The position numbers and the translations under genes were made by a program. Under the pieces are notes generated by a model. That model was given only the letters and a program-made list of their open reading frames with translations. It made no database searches and had not been told where the DNA came from. A DNA stretch of 64,000 nucleotides from a virus. Position 1 is the stretch's first letter, and the number at the start of each line of letters is the position of its first letter. Positions 2,122-19,121 of the stretch are shown here, one piece after another. Location of the stretch: UHGV virus genome UHGV-1351772; one strand, written 5' to 3'.

Positions 2122-2321
2122 TAGGAACGAGTCTGCGATTCAGCCATCAGCGCACAACTTTTTACAGCCTGTGCATGAAGCTCTGTACCTGGTGTGTAAT
2201 CCTTTATACAATCCTGATACAATTCACGTTTTGTTTCTAGAACACGATTATCGTACTCAGCACTTGCTAGTGCACCTGCGATAAGGATAAAAACTAGAAT
2301 CGGCAACCAAATTTTCATCAT
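2121..2321 (-). CDS. small secreted peptide with cleavable signal (ALASA|EY), two Cys
   Basis: N-terminal hydrophobic signal MMKIWLPILVFILIAGALASA; paralog of adjacent 2318..2527 (RELYQDC...C vs RETLYREC...C). Confidence 0.4.
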   Translation of the reverse strand: MMKIWLPILVFILIAGALASAEYDNRVLETKRELYQDCIKDYTPGTELHAQAVKSCALMAESQTRS

Positions 2322-2527
2322 CCATCTCCCATACGTTTAGCGTATTCCGTACACGCCATTACTAATTCGGCGTAACGTGGATTATCTACAGTAGTACCTG
2401 ACATACATTCACGGTAAAGGGTCTCTCTACGTGATTCGTCAGACGTCTTAACGTAGAACATCAGCATCGATACAATCAGCGCAGTTGAAACAATTGCCGA
2501 GATGATATATCCGTCATTTATTTTCAT
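2318..2527 (-). CDS. small membrane-anchored peptide, paralog of 2121..2321
   Basis: N-terminal TM segment, conserved RExLYxxC...A..V..C core. Confidence 0.4.
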   Translation of the reverse strand: MKINDGYIISAIVSTALIVSMLMFYVKTSDESRRETLYRECMSGTTVDNPRYAELVMACTEYAKRMGDG

Positions 2528-3044
2528 CTATAAAACACCATGGTTCTGGATAAAACTCTGTAAGTAAATCAACGTAAAAACTATGTAAATTTGTTAGTGT
2601 TATAACGCACCCTAACAAATCATGCTCAGTATGGTGATAAATCACTACAGATGTTTCTGATACCCGTTTAACATGTATATGGCCCACGTCTTTAATGCTC
2701 TGATACAATCGTCCGAAATCGACCGTACCGACAGCATCAGATGAATCCGTAACCGAGTACCGTATACGTGGGGTTTCATTATTTACTAACGAAAGAAATT
2801 TCTCCACACTTTCAGCATGGATTTGTTCCATAAAGGATAAGTGTGGGAACACTTCTTTACGTAACGCGCTGCTTGAAATCTTAGCAAAAACCTGACGTTC
2901 CGTTAAGCGCATTAACTCGCCCAATTTCTTCAAGTCTTTGTTATAATTCAGAAAAGCAACCACCTTTTCATCGTGCGTAATAGGCGGCCATTCGACCGCC
3001 TTTGCCCGACGTTGCTTAAACCAACTCGCAAGTCGCGCTATCAC
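2514..3044 (-). CDS. hypothetical protein
   Basis: ORF track, compact operon context. Confidence 0.4.
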   Translation of the reverse strand: MIARLASWFKQRRAKAVEWPPITHDEKVVAFLNYNKDLKKLGELMRLTERQVFAKISSSALRKEVFPHLSFMEQIHAESVEKFLSLVNNETPRIRYSVTDSSDAVGTVDFGRLYQSIKDVGHIHVKRVSETSVVIYHHTEHDLLGCVITLTNLHSFYVDLLTEFYPEPWCFIDENK

Positions 3045-3046
3045 GC

Positions 3047-3739
3047 TTAGTAATCCTCTTCCTGATTCACTACCGATTGGATACGGGATGCGACTTCGTT
3101 AGTGTCCAGGTCAGTTTCGTCTACCTTATCCACAAGTTTCTGTACTTTACGTACATGTGATTCGGTAATATCAAAACGACCACGATCAGCTAACAGCAAC
3201 GTTACCATGTCCTTACGTGTAACCATCAGTTCTTCTTCAGGTAAGTGTAAGGATTTGTCTAACAGACCCGAATGCATGAAGTTTTCCAGTAAGCGTTCTT
3301 CTCCCTGGTCAAAATCATAACGTTCATTAGGTGCAGCAACGAAAGCATAACCGAAGTAGTTTTCTTCCGTCTCACGTAGCGACTTGATGATTTTGTCACC
3401 GTGTTGACAGAAATCACTTAACGTGTAGTCGTCAAGCGTTGCCACGATGGTTTCTGCTTGCACGCCGTTATCTGTTTCGTACAGATGCGCAACCCACAGT
3501 TTCCAGTTACGTGGCTCGTCAAACAAACCACCGATTAACATATCGGTAGCCGCCATGCGCATACGCGGTGACGTTGTAAATTGGAAACCACGACCTGCGT
3601 ACGGACCGATAGGACGAATAGAACTACCGACGAAAGTAATGCGGTTTAGCGCATTTTCAGCAATGGTGTGCGCAGTACGGTTAGCAGCGGCTTTCGGGTT
3701 ATACTTTTTGTTACGCGGTTTCTTTTGTTTGGTAGCCAT
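3047..3739 (-). CDS. hypothetical protein, basic N-terminus
   Basis: ORF track. Confidence 0.45.
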   Translation of the reverse strand: MATKQKKPRNKKYNPKAAANRTAHTIAENALNRITFVGSSIRPIGPYAGRGFQFTTSPRMRMAATDMLIGGLFDEPRNWKLWVAHLYETDNGVQAETIVATLDDYTLSDFCQHGDKIIKSLRETEENYFGYAFVAAPNERYDFDQGEERLLENFMHSGLLDKSLHLPEEELMVTRKDMVTLLLADRGRFDITESHVRKVQKLVDKVDETDLDTNEVASRIQSVVNQEEDY

Positions 3740-4221
3740 TATTTATTCTCAACTAATACTGTGTGGAATGCTTTATAAAGAGCCTGTCGTGCCTCAATTA
3801 ATACTGGACGATTAATCAAGCACATGTATCCGATTTTCCAAGACCAGTAAGACGTGTCATCGGTATTTAACCCGTAATCAGGTTCAAGATATACCAAATC
3901 AGTGTATGCATCTGGTATATAAAGACGACACAAACTAAGATTCCAGAAATTCGGTAAATCCGATTTTGCAAGTTCACTCATTAGCCGCATTGGAATCTGT
4001 CTTCCAATAGCGTCCGTTGCAAAAACGATATGCAGATTTCCAGGTGACTTAGAATACATACCGTGACCTTCACAACTCCACATTGTCGCCAGGTGCGGAT
4101 GGTCGTTGATTAGTTTACAGGTATCACGAACACCTTTTTCAATATAGCCGTTTTTAACTGCAAACTGAGCACGCTCTTTAAATGACGCTAATCTTTCTGC
4201 GTCAACGGAAAATTGAATCAT
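3739..4221 (-). CDS. hypothetical protein
   Basis: ORF track; start overlaps upstream stop. Confidence 0.45.
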   Translation of the reverse strand: MIQFSVDAERLASFKERAQFAVKNGYIEKGVRDTCKLINDHPHLATMWSCEGHGMYSKSPGNLHIVFATDAIGRQIPMRLMSELAKSDLPNFWNLSLCRLYIPDAYTDLVYLEPDYGLNTDDTSYWSWKIGYMCLINRPVLIEARQALYKAFHTVLVENK

Positions 4222-4682
4222 GACGGATTCTTCCCTAAAATTATCTCGCGCATTTCCAGATAGGTGTCAAACGGCACCACGGTGTCTTTATAACGTAGCG
4301 TTACGTAGGTTACAAAATGTTGGGGTGCCAGGAAAGGACGTTTTGGTGACCCGTCGTGATTGTAATACTGCTTCGGACGATATTTGTTGAAAATATCTTC
4401 CCGTGGGAACAATGATTTCTGAATAACCACTTCCCAACGGTGTGGCGTTTCCAAGAGCCCAATACGGATCAGCATACCGTCTACCCACCGGCTCATGTTT
4501 TCGGTTAATACGAAACTGACGTGGTGGTGCTGTACCTCTGCTAACGCGACTTCGGGTTCTTTATCCAGTCGCATTAATACCGCAAACAGTGGGCGATAAT
4601 CAGAATCGTACAAGTCACGGAAAGCAGTTTTCTCACGCTGTTTAAACAACTCAACAATTTCTTTAGATTCGAAGTAATTCAT
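4218..4682 (-). CDS. hypothetical protein
   Basis: Internal ATG at 4682 (MNYFESK) with GGGGA RBS and ATGA overlap with upstream stop; track start 4724 less likely. Confidence 0.4.
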   Translation of the reverse strand: MNYFESKEIVELFKQREKTAFRDLYDSDYRPLFAVLMRLDKEPEVALAEVQHHHVSFVLTENMSRWVDGMLIRIGLLETPHRWEVVIQKSLFPREDIFNKYRPKQYYNHDGSPKRPFLAPQHFVTYVTLRYKDTVVPFDTYLEMREIILGKNPS

Positions 4683-5074
4683 TTTGAAATCCCCAATTCG
4701 TAAGTAACTAAATCGAACAAACACATTTCCAGCATCGCTTGATACAACGTGTGTTCCCCATTACCCACAAAACCATTGTTCAACATTTTATACGTATCTA
4801 TTCCAAACATCGTCTTTACGTCTATAGGACGTTTTTCGAGAATACGTAATAGCGATATTTCCATTACAATCCAATAAGCAGGCTCAACCTTAATTCTGAA
4901 TAACGGATTGATTTTACTTATTGTTTTATCCCAAATATTAAACCAGCGAACCCATTCTGTGCTATTCTGGGGTTTACGCAATCTAAGACGCGTATACGGT
5001 GAGTTGTTATATTGGTCGATAAATGTCTTAATGACATCAGCTTTTCTTGACATTATACCTATTATTGCGGTCAT
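4679..5074 (-). CDS. hypothetical protein
   Basis: ORF track. Confidence 0.4.
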   Translation of the reverse strand: MTAIIGIMSRKADVIKTFIDQYNNSPYTRLRLRKPQNSTEWVRWFNIWDKTISKINPLFRIKVEPAYWIVMEISLLRILEKRPIDVKTMFGIDTYKMLNNGFVGNGEHTLYQAMLEMCLFDLVTYELGISK

Positions 5075-5120
5075 CTCTATATTCTCCTAATCATTAAAAT
5101 AGCCGCAGTTGTAAAAAAGA

Positions 5121-5642
5121 CTACGGGTTAAAAGGCAGCGGTTTGCAATCCCGCTTTTTCAACTCCTCTACTAACTCAGGTAATGTACACCAACGTTTAA
5201 ATTGGTTGTTAGCTTTAAAGTGGCTGAGAATCTCCTCAATGCGCTCAATAGACCACTTCCCTTTCCCTACGTTGTCTAGATCCTTACGTACCGAGAGCGT
5301 CTCAATGGTAAACGCTAACTCTGAACTATCCGAGTGGTCGTACAACAATCTTACTGGTGTTGGTTGGTGTAGCGTAACACGCCACCCTGACTCTTTAGCC
5401 CAGTAGACGTCTTTAATTCGACCGCTGACGTCAATTACGGAACTGATATAAGTCCAATCACTATCCAGTTTGTTCTTTTCGGCGGTTAATGCATCTTCTA
5501 ATCGTAATGAGTTAGGAGACGGAATCCACCAACCGTACTTACCGTAATAATCGTCTATTACAGTAATACCTTCGTAATACAGATATTGTGTTTTTGTATT
5601 AACGAATATTTCATCGCCAATTAAGACAGCGTTTATCTTCAT
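5121..5642 (-). CDS. hypothetical protein
   Basis: ORF track. Confidence 0.45.
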   Translation of the reverse strand: MKINAVLIGDEIFVNTKTQYLYYEGITVIDDYYGKYGWWIPSPNSLRLEDALTAEKNKLDSDWTYISSVIDVSGRIKDVYWAKESGWRVTLHQPTPVRLLYDHSDSSELAFTIETLSVRKDLDNVGKGKWSIERIEEILSHFKANNQFKRWCTLPELVEELKKRDCKPLPFNP

Positions 5643-8012: not shown

Positions 8013-8786
8013 TTAAAAGATAAAATGGCCAGTTAATGCTTCTACTTCAACACCAGGCATCGCCGGTGGTGCTGAGTATGGAAAAGTAAGACGCACGGCT
8101 GCACCCTTTAAATACGCAATACGGCAGTATGTGGTTAAGAGTGCATTCCCGTAAGTACAGTCGTTATAGAAGAAACCTTCGGTGGCAAACGTCTTTTCGT
8201 TGATTTTCGAATAGACTAAGATACCTTCAACTTTACCGTCTTTACGACAGCACAGCCCTTCGGCAGCCCCAATCGCTAACAAACCCAGGCAGTACGTATC
8301 CAAGCTGACATTAGCCACCTTAGGAATCGTAAACGTTTCTTCTAATGTTAGAGATTCAATATCATCTACATCAGGTAAATCGGTACGAACTTCAGGTTTT
8401 TCAGTAAACGTCAGCTCATAGTCGATAGACGTCGGTTGCATACTCAAAAACGCCATTAACTGATCGCGACGTTTTAGGTCGTTGGCAGGGTAGGTGATAT
8501 CAAACACCTCCACACTTAACAAACGTTTGAGTTGTGCGAAATTGATGTTCTTCTTCGCAAACACAACGATTGCTGACATGTAGAAAATCTTACCGTCAGT
8601 GCGGCCGGAGAAGATTCCTTGTAGCTGATTCGTGTTCGAAAGAATAATAAAGGTCGGATCTTCAGATTCGCGAATGACGTCCTTTTCCAGTAACCCTTTC
8701 CGTACACGGGTTAGCGAAACCATTTTGCCATCCACACCAATTGCTAAATGGTCATTACGATAATCGTGGATATCCACTATGCGCAT
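8013..8786 (-). CDS. hypothetical protein, translationally coupled to dam
   Basis: ORF track; ATGA overlap with dam stop at 8786. Confidence 0.45.
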   Translation of the reverse strand: MRIVDIHDYRNDHLAIGVDGKMVSLTRVRKGLLEKDVIRESEDPTFIILSNTNQLQGIFSGRTDGKIFYMSAIVVFAKKNINFAQLKRLLSVEVFDITYPANDLKRRDQLMAFLSMQPTSIDYELTFTEKPEVRTDLPDVDDIESLTLEETFTIPKVANVSLDTYCLGLLAIGAAEGLCCRKDGKVEGILVYSKINEKTFATEGFFYNDCTYGNALLTTYCRIAYLKGAAVRLTFPYSAPPAMPGVEVEALTGHFIF

Positions 8787-9601
8787 TAGAGCACTCCCAG
8801 TAATTCAGTCACCGTTTTCCGAGCGGCACCAGACGCACCCATATAGCGACCAACCTCAATACTGCGCCACTCAAAACCGTAATAAATTTCTCGGGTGAGT
8901 AGGGTGTCTGCATTTGACAGCACGACGCTGTTGCCACGTTCCACCTGCTGCTGTAGTAACTTGGCTAATTCCCGATGATCCGTTTGTGAGAATTCTTTAC
9001 GGTGGTATTGCGCATGTTTCGCGGTATCCGATAACGGAATATAAGGAGGATCAGCATAAATCACGGCATCCTCAGGTGTCCGCGCTAAGACAGAACGAAA
9101 GTCCTCACAAACAATTTCCAGATACTCAACTTCTGTGCAACGTTTAGCCCAATCCCGAATTTCTTCTAATGGATAATAAACGCCGTTCGGGTAACGTCCA
9201 AACGGAACATTGAACCCACCACTACTGTTATAGCGACACATCCCATTATAACCATGACGCATTAAGTATAAAAACATCGCGGCACGTTCAACCTCGGTCA
9301 TCGTTTTACCGCTATTAAACAGTTCACGACGTTCCATATACTTTACAGTGGCATTACCGTCTAAGAACAACGGTTGCGATGCAGCGATCAGTTCTTCAGG
9401 CTGTTCACGCGCAACACAAAGTAAGCGTATCAAATCGGGGTTAGAATCCGATAGAATATACCGGCTGTAATTCGTATTTAGGAAAACAGACCCTGCGCCC
9501 ACAAACGGTTCTACAAAGGTTGTACGTTTAGGTAAGACCTTCTGTAATTCACCCAAAACGCGTGTTTTCCCACCCATCCATTTAATTATCGGTTTCCGCA
9601 T
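8786..9601 (-). CDS. dam: DNA adenine methyltransferase (Dam family)
   Basis: N-terminus IIKWMGGK...FVEPFVGAGSV (AdoMet site) and DPPY catalytic motif, ~270 aa. Confidence 0.85.
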   Translation of the reverse strand: MRKPIIKWMGGKTRVLGELQKVLPKRTTFVEPFVGAGSVFLNTNYSRYILSDSNPDLIRLLCVAREQPEELIAASQPLFLDGNATVKYMERRELFNSGKTMTEVERAAMFLYLMRHGYNGMCRYNSSGGFNVPFGRYPNGVYYPLEEIRDWAKRCTEVEYLEIVCEDFRSVLARTPEDAVIYADPPYIPLSDTAKHAQYHRKEFSQTDHRELAKLLQQQVERGNSVVLSNADTLLTREIYYGFEWRSIEVGRYMGASGAARKTVTELLGVL

Positions 9602-11847: not shown

Positions 11848-12471
11848 TTAGTTTGCTAAAATGTGCGTAACAATCTCAGCGGCTTTCAAACGGTAATCGT
11901 CATTCTGCGTTACTGGTAATAATGCGTGAAGACAACCACCTTCTGTTAAGATGTGATGCGCGAAACGATAATGGTCGCGTAGGCCATCCCAACATTGATT
12001 GTCCATTAGATACTTAACCGTAAGTACCTCATCGTCCCAATTCTTACCTTGTTCTTCTACACGTTTCTTAAATCGCGCTAACGCTGTTGGGTAATCAACA
12101 TCAGTCCAAACATAAAGGTCGGGTGCGTGGAAATGACGAGTTAGCTTACGTTGGAAAACTACGTCCTTGCCATCTGTCCCCTGATAAACAATCGTTGAAG
12201 GGCAAAAACGATCGAAAATGACGACATCGTACTCGTCAACAACATGGTCTAACGTGTGAAGGAAGTCATCACACATTGCTTCAGCAATTTTTGTTTTCGA
12301 AGCAGACTGTACAACCAAGCTACGTGCACGAATACCCGCCTCGGTTTCAGACGTCGGATGGTTCCGAATACACACTTTTAATCCTGCGGACTCCAACATC
12401 GCTTTTACCATTTTACACAACGTTGATTTCCCAGAAAAATCAGGACCATCAATAGACACGGTCTTAAGCAT
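11848..12471 (-). CDS. thymidylate kinase / dNMP-kinase-like P-loop kinase
   Basis: Walker A GPDFSGKST at N-terminus, ~200 aa. Confidence 0.6.
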   Translation of the reverse strand: MLKTVSIDGPDFSGKSTLCKMVKAMLESAGLKVCIRNHPTSETEAGIRARSLVVQSASKTKIAEAMCDDFLHTLDHVVDEYDVVIFDRFCPSTIVYQGTDGKDVVFQRKLTRHFHAPDLYVWTDVDYPTALARFKKRVEEQGKNWDDEVLTVKYLMDNQCWDGLRDHYRFAHHILTEGGCLHALLPVTQNDDYRLKAAEIVTHILAN

Positions 12472-13895: not shown

Positions 13896-14267
13896 TTAGA
13901 ACCCCTCAAGAACAGCTTTCACAAATTCATAAACTGTGCGTCGGTGTTCTTCAAGCGGATAAACAAACTTAGAATAATCGTTGTTCCAGACAACCGGATA
14001 GAGGTCGCCATCACAACTTAAATAGCTCTTACGAACCATGTAATAATCTAAACCTACACGGAAGTTTAACGACAGACTACCGTGTTTACTACAAACGTGT
14101 AGCTGGAGCGATTTCACACCGTCTTGAGTTGGTGATTCAATCGTTTCCGCATACAATACATCCGAACACTGTTCTATAGCGCTAACGACATCTCTGAGGT
14201 TGTTGTCTGCATCGATGGTCGCTTTTCGGAGAGCGTCGGTGTATTGCTGAAGTTCTCGATAGAACAT
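13896..14267 (-). CDS. hypothetical protein
   Basis: ORF track; start uncertain (overlaps 14174..14806). Confidence 0.35.
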   Translation of the reverse strand: MFYRELQQYTDALRKATIDADNNLRDVVSAIEQCSDVLYAETIESPTQDGVKSLQLHVCSKHGSLSLNFRVGLDYYMVRKSYLSCDGDLYPVVWNNDYSKFVYPLEEHRRTVYEFVKAVLEGF

Positions 14268-14806
14268 CCTGCTAATCTCCTGTCTCTACCGTATGGCAGA
14301 GGAAATGCTTTGTGTTCAAATTCTGCAACGACATACGCAGGATAGAACAAAAGGTATTTATAGAACGTAGACAACGTAACGTTTTTCTGGGTGGCTAAAA
14401 AGTAATTAAGATCGGGGTTGTCTGGAAAAGCAAAATGCAACCCTGTGTATACCTGACCTTTATACTCCCCATTAAAGGGTGTGACTGCACATCGTGGGTG
14501 TGTCGGCTCGACGTGTAACCAACGACTTCTTACGTGATAAACGCCACGGACTGTCGCGTTTCGTGTTTTACCCAAATAACGGCAACGGATATTCTTTTCC
14601 CACGCCGCACGTTGAGTGGGTGAACCCAGAGAAACAAACCGCGTTAAAGCTTCAGGTGTAAAGTAATCAAAAATGCCGGTCGGTAAACACCAACACGCTT
14701 TATCGATTCGTACCACTCTCCAACCAGGACGAAAACCCACAGCGTAACGCTCTACACCAAAAGTATATCTAGACCCGTCATGAAACGGTACTAATCTTGC
14801 AGCCAT
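14174..14806 (-). CDS. hypothetical protein
   Basis: ORF track. Confidence 0.4.
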   Translation of the reverse strand: MAARLVPFHDGSRYTFGVERYAVGFRPGWRVVRIDKACWCLPTGIFDYFTPEALTRFVSLGSPTQRAAWEKNIRCRYLGKTRNATVRGVYHVRSRWLHVEPTHPRCAVTPFNGEYKGQVYTGLHFAFPDNPDLNYFLATQKNVTLSTFYKYLLFYPAYVVAEFEHKAFPLPYGRDRRLAGCSIENFSNTPTLSEKRPSMQTTTSEMSLAL

Positions 14807-14807
14807 T

Positions 14808-15275
14808 TTAGATTTCCTTTATCATTTCCCTGCATTCGGTACGGAATCCCATTTTCTCATACAAGGAGATAGCTTTAACGTTGTTGTCTAACACATCCAG
14901 ACTCATCCAACCACAACCTTTGGACTTTCCGTATTCACGAACTTTGTCCATAAGCGCACGTCCTACCCCTTGAGAACGTGCTTCGGGAATCACATAGTAG
15001 TTCCCAATATAAACAAATGTGTCCTTCGAGCAAGAACCTATTGAGAACGTCATGAAACCCAGAAGTTGTTCGTTGTCATCCACGGCACACGCACAGAGAT
15101 AATCTTGGGGCCAAATCTCTTCTAAGTGTTCAATTGGGTTGAACGTGTCGCGACCGGTTAACTGACTAATACGCACTTTCTCTTCTGCGAACAACATGTT
15201 GTGCAGTTTGAGTACCTGGTCGCCGTATAACTTTCCGTATTTACTGTCGGGTTTGAGAATAATAGTGATACGCAT
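14808..15275 (-). CDS. GNAT-family acetyltransferase
   Basis: VIPEARSQGVGRALMDKV acetyl-CoA-binding motif, 155 aa. Confidence 0.6.
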   Translation of the reverse strand: MRITIILKPDSKYGKLYGDQVLKLHNMLFAEEKVRISQLTGRDTFNPIEHLEEIWPQDYLCACAVDDNEQLLGFMTFSIGSCSKDTFVYIGNYYVIPEARSQGVGRALMDKVREYGKSKGCGWMSLDVLDNNVKAISLYEKMGFRTECREMIKEI

Positions 15276-16408: not shown

Positions 16409-16458
16409 CCTTTACCCCATTTTAAGCTAAAGCGGGGAGAAGCCCGCCCTGACTAACT

Positions 16459-17007
16459 TCATAATAAGCGTAGGTCTTCTAACCACTTAGATGCATCCGT
16501 AACATGATAATAACAAGGGATGTTCAGTGACTGTGCGTAGCGGACACCCATCGCCGTACCCCCTTTTGGATTTCCCTTTTTATCATGCTCAGCGTAATAA
16601 TAGACGGCGTCTACATGATCGTCCAAAGAATCACCGGATACAATATTTAAGTTTCGTCCATGCAACGCCCAAGCTATTTCCGATAGCTTATCAGGATTAG
16701 GGTGAAGCGATGCCACAATCCCACGATAACGGACGTCTTGTGGAATAACGCGAAAATCCACATTCGGATGTAACTTACGTAACCACAACTTACGTTCGTC
16801 AGGCAAATAGCAAATATGTGGACCTGGTTCAGTACGTGCTAACATAAACTGTAATTGGTCTGGTCCTTTGTAACAACCGCCTGACCGCGTTTCGATACTG
16901 TGCTGTTTATTACGAAGAATTTTGAACCCGCGTTGCAACACATCCAACATTTCATGCATCGTATCTTCGGGCGTTTCTCGAGAACCAATAATAGCAATTT
17001 TATACAT
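16459..17007 (-). CDS. SLOG/DprA-like Rossmann-fold protein (putative nucleotide-binding)
   Basis: N-terminal KIAIIGSRE and SGGCYKGPD resemble DprA/SLOG motifs; low certainty. Confidence 0.35.
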   Translation of the reverse strand: MYKIAIIGSRETPEDTMHEMLDVLQRGFKILRNKQHSIETRSGGCYKGPDQLQFMLARTEPGPHICYLPDERKLWLRKLHPNVDFRVIPQDVRYRGIVASLHPNPDKLSEIAWALHGRNLNIVSGDSLDDHVDAVYYYAEHDKKGNPKGGTAMGVRYAQSLNIPCYYHVTDASKWLEDLRLL

Positions 17008-17053
17008 TTGTCACCTCCATACTGAAGTTGTGAAGTGAAAAAAAAAGAAAGCA

Positions 17054-17080
17054 GGAGAGAACCTTTTCAGGGTTCTCTCC
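17054..17080 (-). terminator. rho-independent terminator
   Basis: ggagagaacc/ggttctctcc stem after 10 nt A-run. Confidence 0.6.
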
Positions 17081-17094
17081 TATCGGTGATGTTA

Positions 17095-17757
17095 TCACGC
17101 TTCTAAACCACTTAAAACGACGGTCTCGAGTAACGCTTTGCCCATCCAGACGTCCAACTCACCATCTAAGCCCCCTAAAGGACGTTTATTCAGTTCGTTG
17201 TTGTAATTAAGTCCGTCAAGGGTTTTATTCGTAATAATTTGCCCAATATGAAGCGGTAGAATAAATCGATTTCGTGCGCTATAAATAAACGAATCACATT
17301 CGTAAATTACCACATAGCGCTCGAGATCCTCATCATACTCAACGTGACACTGCGAGCCCGTGTCCCATGCACGCGACAAAACCATACCACGGTCTTGACA
17401 CATCTTCTCCACCGACACTTTCGCGGACTCTGCCCATTTATCGTAATTTTTAGGTTGGCCGTTTTCGAAATCGAACCAATCCAGATACTTACCGGGAATA
17501 TCAAGAAAGTCGTTCAATTGAAGTTTCGTGTAAGATATCATCACCGCGTCGTTAATATCATTGCGGTTAGTTAACTTTACTCGATACCGACCTTCCGGTG
17601 TGGGTGCGCCTATTAAAGAAACATCCACTTTCTCAGCCGAAAGCTTTTTACGTACACTGCCGCTATTACAGTAACTAACGAGGTTGAGTAAGTTCTGTCT
17701 ATGACCAACTTCAAAATCAATTACAAAAGACATACAAACTCCGCGGGGGTTAATCAC
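17095..17757 (-). CDS. hypothetical protein
   Basis: ORF track. Confidence 0.4.
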   Translation of the reverse strand: MINPRGVCMSFVIDFEVGHRQNLLNLVSYCNSGSVRKKLSAEKVDVSLIGAPTPEGRYRVKLTNRNDINDAVMISYTKLQLNDFLDIPGKYLDWFDFENGQPKNYDKWAESAKVSVEKMCQDRGMVLSRAWDTGSQCHVEYDEDLERYVVIYECDSFIYSARNRFILPLHIGQIITNKTLDGLNYNNELNKRPLGGLDGELDVWMGKALLETVVLSGLEA

Positions 17758-18644: not shown

Positions 18645-19121
18645 CTAATAAATCTTATCCGCAACAGAGAGAAAGATGGGGGTGTTTTCAATAAAATCCA
18701 CCAAATATCCTTCTTCCGGCGGGGCGTATGACGAATCAACGTTACTGTTCGTCATACGAAAATACCGACGGGAGTCACTGGCAATAAACCATCGGTCTAT
18801 TTGGAAGCCTTTTTTGGAAAAGAAACACAGTCCGTCAATGTTTGAGGGATGCACACGACACATCACCATTTGACGATCTGAATTAAGTTGAACGTATTTC
18901 AGTAAAAAGGAACCTACACCGCTACGGCGAGAACCTTCGGCCACTACCAGATAGATAAGATTCCCCGGCTCCCAGATTGCAACCCCATGTGTAATATCAT
19001 CTTCAACGGCCAACGTGATTCTAACTGGCGTTTCCCGAATCGAATTTAAGTCTTTGACGTATTCACGTAATTCAGGAAATTTAGCGGAAATTTTGTCTTC
19101 GGTAATATCTAACTGCTGCAT
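18645..19121 (-). CDS. GNAT-family acetyltransferase
   Basis: VVAEGSRRSGVGSFLLKYV motif. Confidence 0.55.
   Translation of the reverse strand: MQQLDITEDKISAKFPELREYVKDLNSIRETPVRITLAVEDDITHGVAIWEPGNLIYLVVAEGSRRSGVGSFLLKYVQLNSDRQMVMCRVHPSNIDGLCFFSKKGFQIDRWFIASDSRRYFRMTNSNVDSSYAPPEEGYLVDFIENTPIFLSVADKIY

Follow-up and report, generated by a model that had tools for sequence, protein, structure and literature searches.

A single-domain SLOG protein of the DprA branch in a phiKZ-like jumbo phage

The SLOG gene and its surroundings

The DNA analysed here (hereafter the window; 64,000 nt of virus genome UHGV-1351772) is that of a phiKZ-like jumbo phage. The ORF that the first-pass annotation had placed at 16459–17007, with no strand stated, was borne out: an ORF check returned exactly this extent, including the stop codon, on the minus strand, and the plus-strand frame of the interval is packed with stops. 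The 182-aa product begins with MYKIAIIGSRETPED and contains the internal segment RSGGCYKGPDQ; KIAIIGSRE corresponds to residues 3–11 of the protein and SGGCYKGPD to residues 42–50. The gene, its signals and the genes around it are listed below.

8786–9601, minus: DNA methyltransferase (PHROG 56, E=4e-85), approximately 7 kb from the SLOG gene
11848–12471: thymidylate kinase
13896–14267 and 14174–14806, both minus: two ORFs, each matching a PHROG over its full length (8535, 9255), overlapping by 94 nt
14808–15275 and 18645–19121, both minus: GNAT acetyltransferases (PHROG 3810; the other, 7861), on either side of the region
16459–17007, minus: CDS of the single-domain DprA-clade SLOG protein (PHROG 768), 182 aa plus stop
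17011–17018, minus: RBS GGAGGTGA, 6 nt 5′ of the ATG, by direct sequence reading
17052–17082, minus: strong terminator-like hairpin with a 12-bp stem (6 GC pairs) followed by a long T-run; a consensus match only, from a promoter/terminator scan
17095–17757, minus: 220-aa ORF of unassigned function (PHROG 10571), between a gp102-like gene and the SLOG gene

The RBS of the SLOG gene is canonical and good. The terminator-like hairpin lies between the upstream gene, whose stop is at 17095, and the SLOG gene, inside a long co-directional array. A short 5-bp GC hairpin at about 16432–16447, 3′ of the SLOG gene stop, was seen by eye and was not called by the terminator scan; together the two hairpins flank the gene in a cassette-like manner. 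The gene downstream codes for an internal head protein of phiKZ type (PHROG 2497, Pfam phiKZ_IP), and the placement of the SLOG gene between this gene and genes of no known function gives no functional neighbour clue. A DNA polymerase and a DnaB-like helicase are encoded elsewhere in the window.

A nucleotide search of 50,697 phage records found no match. At the protein level the nearest genomes, at 58–62% identity, are those of the Erwinia phages Asesino, Machina and Caitlin and of Salmonella SPFM/SPN3US-like phages, and a 99%-identical protein in the same gene context is present on a 191-kb contig from the Logan assembly of SRR29133897. Around the ORF, the genes follow the order of Machina gp100–gp113, and the homologue at the same genomic position, gp103 (58–62% identity range), is annotated as a ‘DprA-like DNA recombination-mediator protein’. 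The flanking GNAT genes are shared with Machina (gp107 and gp100). In contrast, Machina has no gene at the site of the 220-aa ORF, and the window has no counterpart of its gp104 and gp105 (‘putative ammonia monooxygenase’); the surroundings of the SLOG gene are a local indel hotspot between the two genomes. The overlap between the ORFs at 13896–14267 and 14174–14806 may be genuine and conserved, because gp108 and gp109, the corresponding Machina genes, share a 55-nt overlap as well.

A widespread phage family nearest to DprA

The match of the window protein to a DprA-like family goes far beyond chance: residues 1–172 align with positions 3–170 of the 191-position profile of PHROG 768, labelled ‘DprA-like DNA recombination-mediator protein’, at E=1e-43. 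The AlphaFold2 model is a confident Rossmann fold (mean pLDDT 93.1, pTM 0.89) in which the Rossmann domain uses up all 182 aa, leaving no accessory SAM domain at the N-terminus or winged-helix domain at the C-terminus. Profile and model together support what had been a tentative call of a SLOG/DprA-like Rossmann-fold protein. Searched alone against Pfam, NCBIfam and PDB sequences, the window protein returned noise only (FOG1-like_PR, ETV6 fusions, SEL1).

Homologues with 58–99% identity to the window protein occur in jumbo-phage genomes and metagenomes. A tblastn search found homologues in at least 271 phage records (from phages of Erwinia, Acinetobacter, Salmonella, Klebsiella, Aeromonas and others), covering jumbo, T4-like, rV5-like, phi92-like and other phage types, and an exhaustive profile search of 1.84 billion representatives gave 1,900 matches at E<=1e-3, counted as representative metagenome clusters, many of them standalone proteins of approximately 180 aa and others with the domain embedded in proteins of 1,000–5,200 aa. 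The Phi92_gp047-like/PHROG 768 proteins (Machina gp103, Caitlin, phiEaH2) share the motifs GSR-x-T, SGG-x-x-G-x-D, YLP, HP, LH-x-RN and GGT, and BFVD structures of PHROG 768 phage proteins superpose on the window protein with TM scores of 0.75–0.80. The best GenBank phage protein is only 62% identical to it, and it lacks a 15–17-residue insert found after helix 2 in Machina-type homologues. The window protein thus joins a known family, whose function is predicted by analogy, as a new and fairly divergent member; it is not a new kind of protein, because close homologues are annotated as DprA-like and surveys by the Aravind group discuss the family. A literature search found no reported experiments on the PHROG 768-type phage family.

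To place the family among SLOG clades, we used an alignment of 44 standalone relatives reaching down to 22% identity. Searched against all PDB sequences, the profile from this alignment matched DprA alone (E 1.4e-4 to 5.5e-4), with IGSR set on IGTR and SGGAxGAD on SGGALGVD of Helicobacter pylori DprA (HpDprA). When each member was scanned against Pfam, 22 of the 44 gave weak matches to DNA_processg_A (PF02481; best 3.3e-8), against ten to LDcluster4, six to YAcAr and one to cpYpsA; the window protein itself had no PF02481 match even at E<=10. Using hhalign, the alignment matched Escherichia coli Smf (E 5.4e-5, probability 67%), pairing GSR with GSR, SGGCyKGPD with SGLARGID and LHGRNLNIVSG with FPRRN-RIISG, whereas the comparison with the LOG-family protein PpnN was null (E 0.14, probability 0.4%) and no member matched Pfam Lysine_decarbox. 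Identity to DprA structures is 14–20%. The profile, Pfam and hhalign results, with Smf set against PpnN, indicate that the family is nearest to DprA, yet forms a separate, divergent branch; isoelectric point and charge had no discriminating power. The features described for the SLOG superfamily of the Rossmannoid TIR-DrHyd-SLOG class (PMC9503650) are present, GSR, SGG..G.D, HP and LH-x-RN being invariant or near-invariant.

Viral SLOG domains have been described as ‘primarily’ YpsA-like (Iyer et al. 2022, PMC9503650), and a DprA/Smf-type copy in jumbo phages was noted by the same group in 2021 (PMC7824862). The PHROG 768-type family appears to be that copy. Neither model match nor closest structure placed the window protein with the YAcAr/YpsA-like viral SLOGs (PF10686, PF06908, PF12694), and its placement in the DprA branch, rather than in the LOG or YAcAr branches, is new here. 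YAcAr/YpsA-like proteins such as Erwinia phage RAY gp153 (PF10686) belong to the same superfamily, also occur in jumbo phages, are also annotated as ‘DprA-like’ and show Macro and NADAR fusion or neighbour themes similar to those of the window family, but they constitute a different family (hhalign probability 9.6%, BFVD TM 0.4–0.5). The alignment shows no RN helix motif region in RAY gp153 itself, and we rejected this protein as an orthologue: it is YAcAr-type (Pfam 1.3e-4), has no BLASTP similarity and reaches an hhalign probability of 9.6%. A GFP fusion of RAY ‘DprA gp153’ was seen in the nucleus together with the phage DNA (PMC10299810); since gp153 belongs to a different family, this localization is not transferable to the window protein. 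The RAY protein (locus excerpt 8154–9511) has an N-terminal extension of approximately 150 aa and directly follows gp152, a Macro-domain protein annotated as a ‘putative phosphatase’; this Macro–SLOG pair lies near UvsX gp150.

Motifs of the DprA pocket

In the 44-member alignment, G8, R10, G43, G48, D50, R118, N119, G149, G150, T151 and A158 are invariant, and S9, T12, S42, H102, H116 and G125 are near-invariant. KIAIIGSRE and SGGCYKGPD form the loops after strands 1 and 2 of the Rossmannoid fold. Their proposed likeness to DprA/SLOG nucleotide-binding motifs held up in both alignments: the profile places them on IGTRR and SGGALGVD of HpDprA, and hhalign places them on GSR and SGLARGID of Smf. 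The codons of the conserved motifs are as follows.

16978–16986, minus: G8-S9-R10, DprA motif 1 (G-S/T/A-R), loop after strand 1; G and R in 44/44 members, S in 43/44
16858–16884, minus: S42–D50 (SGGCYKGPD), glycine-rich loop after strand 2; G43, G48 and D50 invariant
16699–16704, minus: H102-P103, part of the ‘HPAP’ motif seen across the wider family; H102 in 41/44, P103 in 38/44
16651–16665, minus: L115-H116-G117-R118-N119, DprA motif 2 (F/L/Y-x-x-R-N/D), in helix 110–124; aligned by hhalign with Smf FPRRN
16540–16563, minus: G149–R156 (GGTAMGVR), loop and helix after strand 4; GGT in 44/44, aligned with HpDprA SGSMSSAR

HpDprA has been solved with ssDNA by Wang et al., who gave the signature of the ssDNA-binding DprA domain as G-S/T/A-R (G50–R52) plus F/L/Y-x-x-R-N/D (F140–N144) (PMC3950713). 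In that structure one thymine sits in a small basic pocket of Y108, R143, N144 and G164, with R52 as a gate, and the substitutions R52E and R143E lowered affinity by approximately 315-fold and 173-fold, respectively (PMC3950713). In the phage family, G8-S9-R10 aligns with HpDprA G50-T51-R52, as well as with GSR of Smf, making R10 the equivalent of R52; SGGCYKGPD is equivalent to the SG-x-A-x-G-x-D of DprA; and in motif 2, R118 and N119 are present in all 44 members, H116 in 43 and L115 in 37. G150 corresponds to HpDprA G164, and R156 to HpDprA R170 (ShosA R261), a position that is R or K in only 20 of the 44 members. LOG proteins are told apart by PGGxGTxxE (PMC3950713). The catalytic Glu of this motif is absent from GGTAMGVRY, where the column holds V155 (V in 29, I in 6 and L in 6 of the 44 members, with no Glu among the residues listed).

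Judged from sequence, the family carries both published DprA signature motifs and lacks the LOG signature. This motif equivalence is the strongest mechanistic evidence in our analysis, and points to an intact DprA-type nucleotide pocket, the ligand of which could be polymeric ssDNA or a mononucleotide-like molecule, both being compatible with the motifs. A rival reading is an enzyme of the nucleotide pool, acting as a LOG/PpnN-like N-glycosidase on (d)NMPs or modified nucleotides and so reshaping precursors for phage DNA synthesis. We consider this quite unlikely given the loss of the Glu from GGTAMGVRY, with V155 in 29 of 44 members, the null hhalign comparison with PpnN and the want of any Lysine_decarbox match in members whose non-DprA matches are to LDcluster4, YAcAr and cpYpsA. 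The same missing Glu and the E value of 0.14 separate the window protein from the LOG/PpnN nucleotide N-glycosidases (PF03641) in general.

The phage family also differs from bacterial DprA/Smf proteins (PF02481; PDB 3maj, 4ljk/4ljr, 3uqz), in which SAM and winged-helix domains are common, but not universal; the window protein has neither, and single-domain DprAs exist (PMC3950713). The segment from strand 3 to the RN helix carries the family-specific motifs YLP(D/W) and HP(A/N)P, and thus differs from that of DprA/Smf in having an HP motif. H102-P103 falls outside the signature residues of Wang et al., and both H102 and H116 are conserved in the phage family only, a pattern that hints at extra specificity or chemistry. 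The presence of both DprA ssDNA signature motifs, intact and invariant, and the family-specific histidines H102 and H116 are new here.

Of the DprA-like antitoxins of anti-phage toxin–antitoxin systems, ShosA and PsyrA (PDB 8zva), ShosA has the pocket: its R139, R234 and R261 correspond to HpDprA R52, R143 and R170, and both its ssDNA binding and its antitoxin activity depend on them (PMC12961424). An orphan mimic of such an antitoxin might replace unstable ShosA/PsyrA, which bind ssDNA and RecA, after host shut-off, and thereby stop ShosTA/PsyrTA abortive infection, much as two orphan antitoxin-like proteins, AdfN (NADAR) and AdfM (Macro), overcome DarTG. Such a role for the window protein is very unlikely. 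ShosA depends on a SAM domain and a C-terminal helix to be stable and to dimerize (PMC12961424), and the window protein has neither; a PADLOC scan gave no match for it, and the PADLOC matches of its relatives cover a generic N-terminal 50 residues only; a contact with RecA finds no support; and the family, in 271 records, is spread much more widely in phages than so narrow a role would lead one to expect. No PRTase toxin gene adjoins the SLOG gene, the neighbours being the internal head protein, GNATs and unassigned genes.

Fusion partners, genomic contexts and a proposed role

Pfam domains were scanned in 54 multi-domain relatives, and this census of SLOG fusion partners is new here. SF1 helicase domains (AAA_30/PIF1/UvrD_C_2) were found in seven relatives, NADAR in five and AlkB-like 2OG-Fe(II) oxygenase in three; DUF4326 and DUF7831 each occurred in two, and Macro, ART-PolyVal and ORF6N in one each. 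One protein has the domain order AlkB-like, SLOG, NADAR (P0088), and two combine SLOG with an SF1 helicase (P0071, P0097). Six giants of 4,000–5,200 aa (P0090, P0113, P0118, P0125, P0129, P0152) usually carry the SLOG domain toward the C-terminus; proteins of the P0090 type look like injected polyvalent proteins with which phages or conjugative elements counter defences. The partners are mostly ssDNA-moving or base-repairing enzymes, and therefore fit with an ssDNA-binding module.

The standalone copies are found among replication and nucleotide-metabolism genes, in early and middle gene regions. In Mydovirus BIS47 and Lahexavirus LAh_6 the SLOG copy follows PhoH (plus an endonuclease) and sits beside RNR genes; the succession of a PhoH-like ATPase and a DprA-like SLOG gene (locus excerpts 3378–4621 in BIS47 and 2217–3528 in LAh_6) recurs in these unrelated lineages, and could represent a conserved functional pairing. 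Rhizobium phage LG08 has its copy directly upstream of the DNA polymerase gene, Kimel near dCTPase and denV, and Amme-3 near MazG. No linkage to UvsX/RecA was seen at any sampled standalone locus.

Several loci called for corrected annotation. The Karamvirus Cronobacter phage Pet-CM3-4 (locus excerpt 4004–4549) has an unannotated 181-aa SLOG-family ORF. This ORF and the RNA ligase 2 stop codon overlap (ATGA), an arrangement suggestive of translational coupling between the two genes. A conserved RNA ligase 2 (Rnl2) linkage was rejected, as the genes are approximately 2.3 kb apart in ZPAH1 and unlinked in Kimel; the SLOG gene lies there in the hyperplastic rnlB–gene 24 region. In Aeromonas phage ZPAH1, orf00262 (excerpt 2986–3552) is annotated as ‘RNA ligase’ and is actually a SLOG/DprA-like homologue, the true RNA ligase 2 being approximately 2.3 kb upstream. 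In Klebsiella phage OY979426.1 a link to NAD salvage, suggested by a CDS labelled ‘nicotinamide-nucleotide adenylyltransferase’ close to a PnuC-like gene, was rejected because the CDS table is out of register: the real ORFs are PhoH followed by a DprA-like ORF (3983–4621), as in BIS47, and in excerpt 3900–5300 the mislabelled CDS overlies the DprA-like ORF, many CDSs of the record being flagged as pseudogenes.

The fold, the family, the equivalence and conservation of the motifs and the fusion partners are shown by our analysis, which makes the window protein a minimal single-domain SLOG protein of the DprA branch. Our data are consistent with a model, to which we assign a probability of about 0.5, in which its pocket binds single-stranded nucleic acid in phage DNA metabolism. 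The pocket is formed by the G8-S9-R10 loop after strand 1, the L115-x-x-R118-N119 helix motif and the G149-G150-T151 loop with R156. In DprA and ShosA the same pocket holds one flipped-out base and the adjacent ssDNA phosphates, and the phage protein may likewise bind a single strand of nucleic acid, or one nucleotide unit on it. The setting would be phage DNA replication, recombination or repair, with the protein as an accessory ssDNA-handling factor, in keeping with the other phages in which the same module is fused to ssDNA translocases or base-repair enzymes (SF1 helicase, NADAR, Macro, AlkB-like). The ligand, the oligomeric state, any contact with RecA or UvsX and the biological role of the phage protein are matters that we can only infer.

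The same fusion architectures were taken by Iyer et al. 2022 as evidence of ADPr-signal processing (PMC9503650), and the pocket could then serve as a sensor or enzyme for soluble molecules derived from NAD+ or ADP-ribose, binding host immune signals or toxic ADPr derivatives (cADPR isomers), possibly cleaving an N-glycosidic bond, and so blunting Thoeris-like or other NAD-centred defences. This function was predicted for viral SLOG domains by the same authors, and we regard it as possible, though rather unlikely, for the window protein. The partners bear on a further, distinctly doubtful reading. DarT-installed ADP-ribose has been shown to be stripped from DNA by AdfN, a NADAR protein of phages, and by AdfM, the Macro protein of chimalliviruses, Asesino gp217 among them (PMC11257639, PMC13309987). 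As a counter-defence factor, the SLOG protein might use its base pocket to recognize damaged or ADP-ribosylated bases or exposed ssDNA and present them to Macro/NADAR/AlkB-type enzymes, or might cleave the adduct itself with the involvement of H102 and H116; an orphan ShosA/PsyrA-like antitoxin would be another form of such a factor.

For this window, the SLOG gene is an ordinary accessory gene of an already annotated type. The PHROG 768-type family is widespread, yet lacks a Pfam model, and the recombination-mediator label that it bears in databases was assigned by analogy alone. The intact DprA ssDNA pocket predicted here, the missing LOG residue and the distinctness from YAcAr-type viral SLOGs sharpen what to test. 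The counter-defence reading, if true, would place a widespread ‘DprA-like’ family of phages among anti-immunity proteins rather than recombination mediators. A role in ssDNA protection or repair would likewise tie the family into a current topic of phage biology, because its fusion partners are domain types that reverse DarT ADP-ribosylation.
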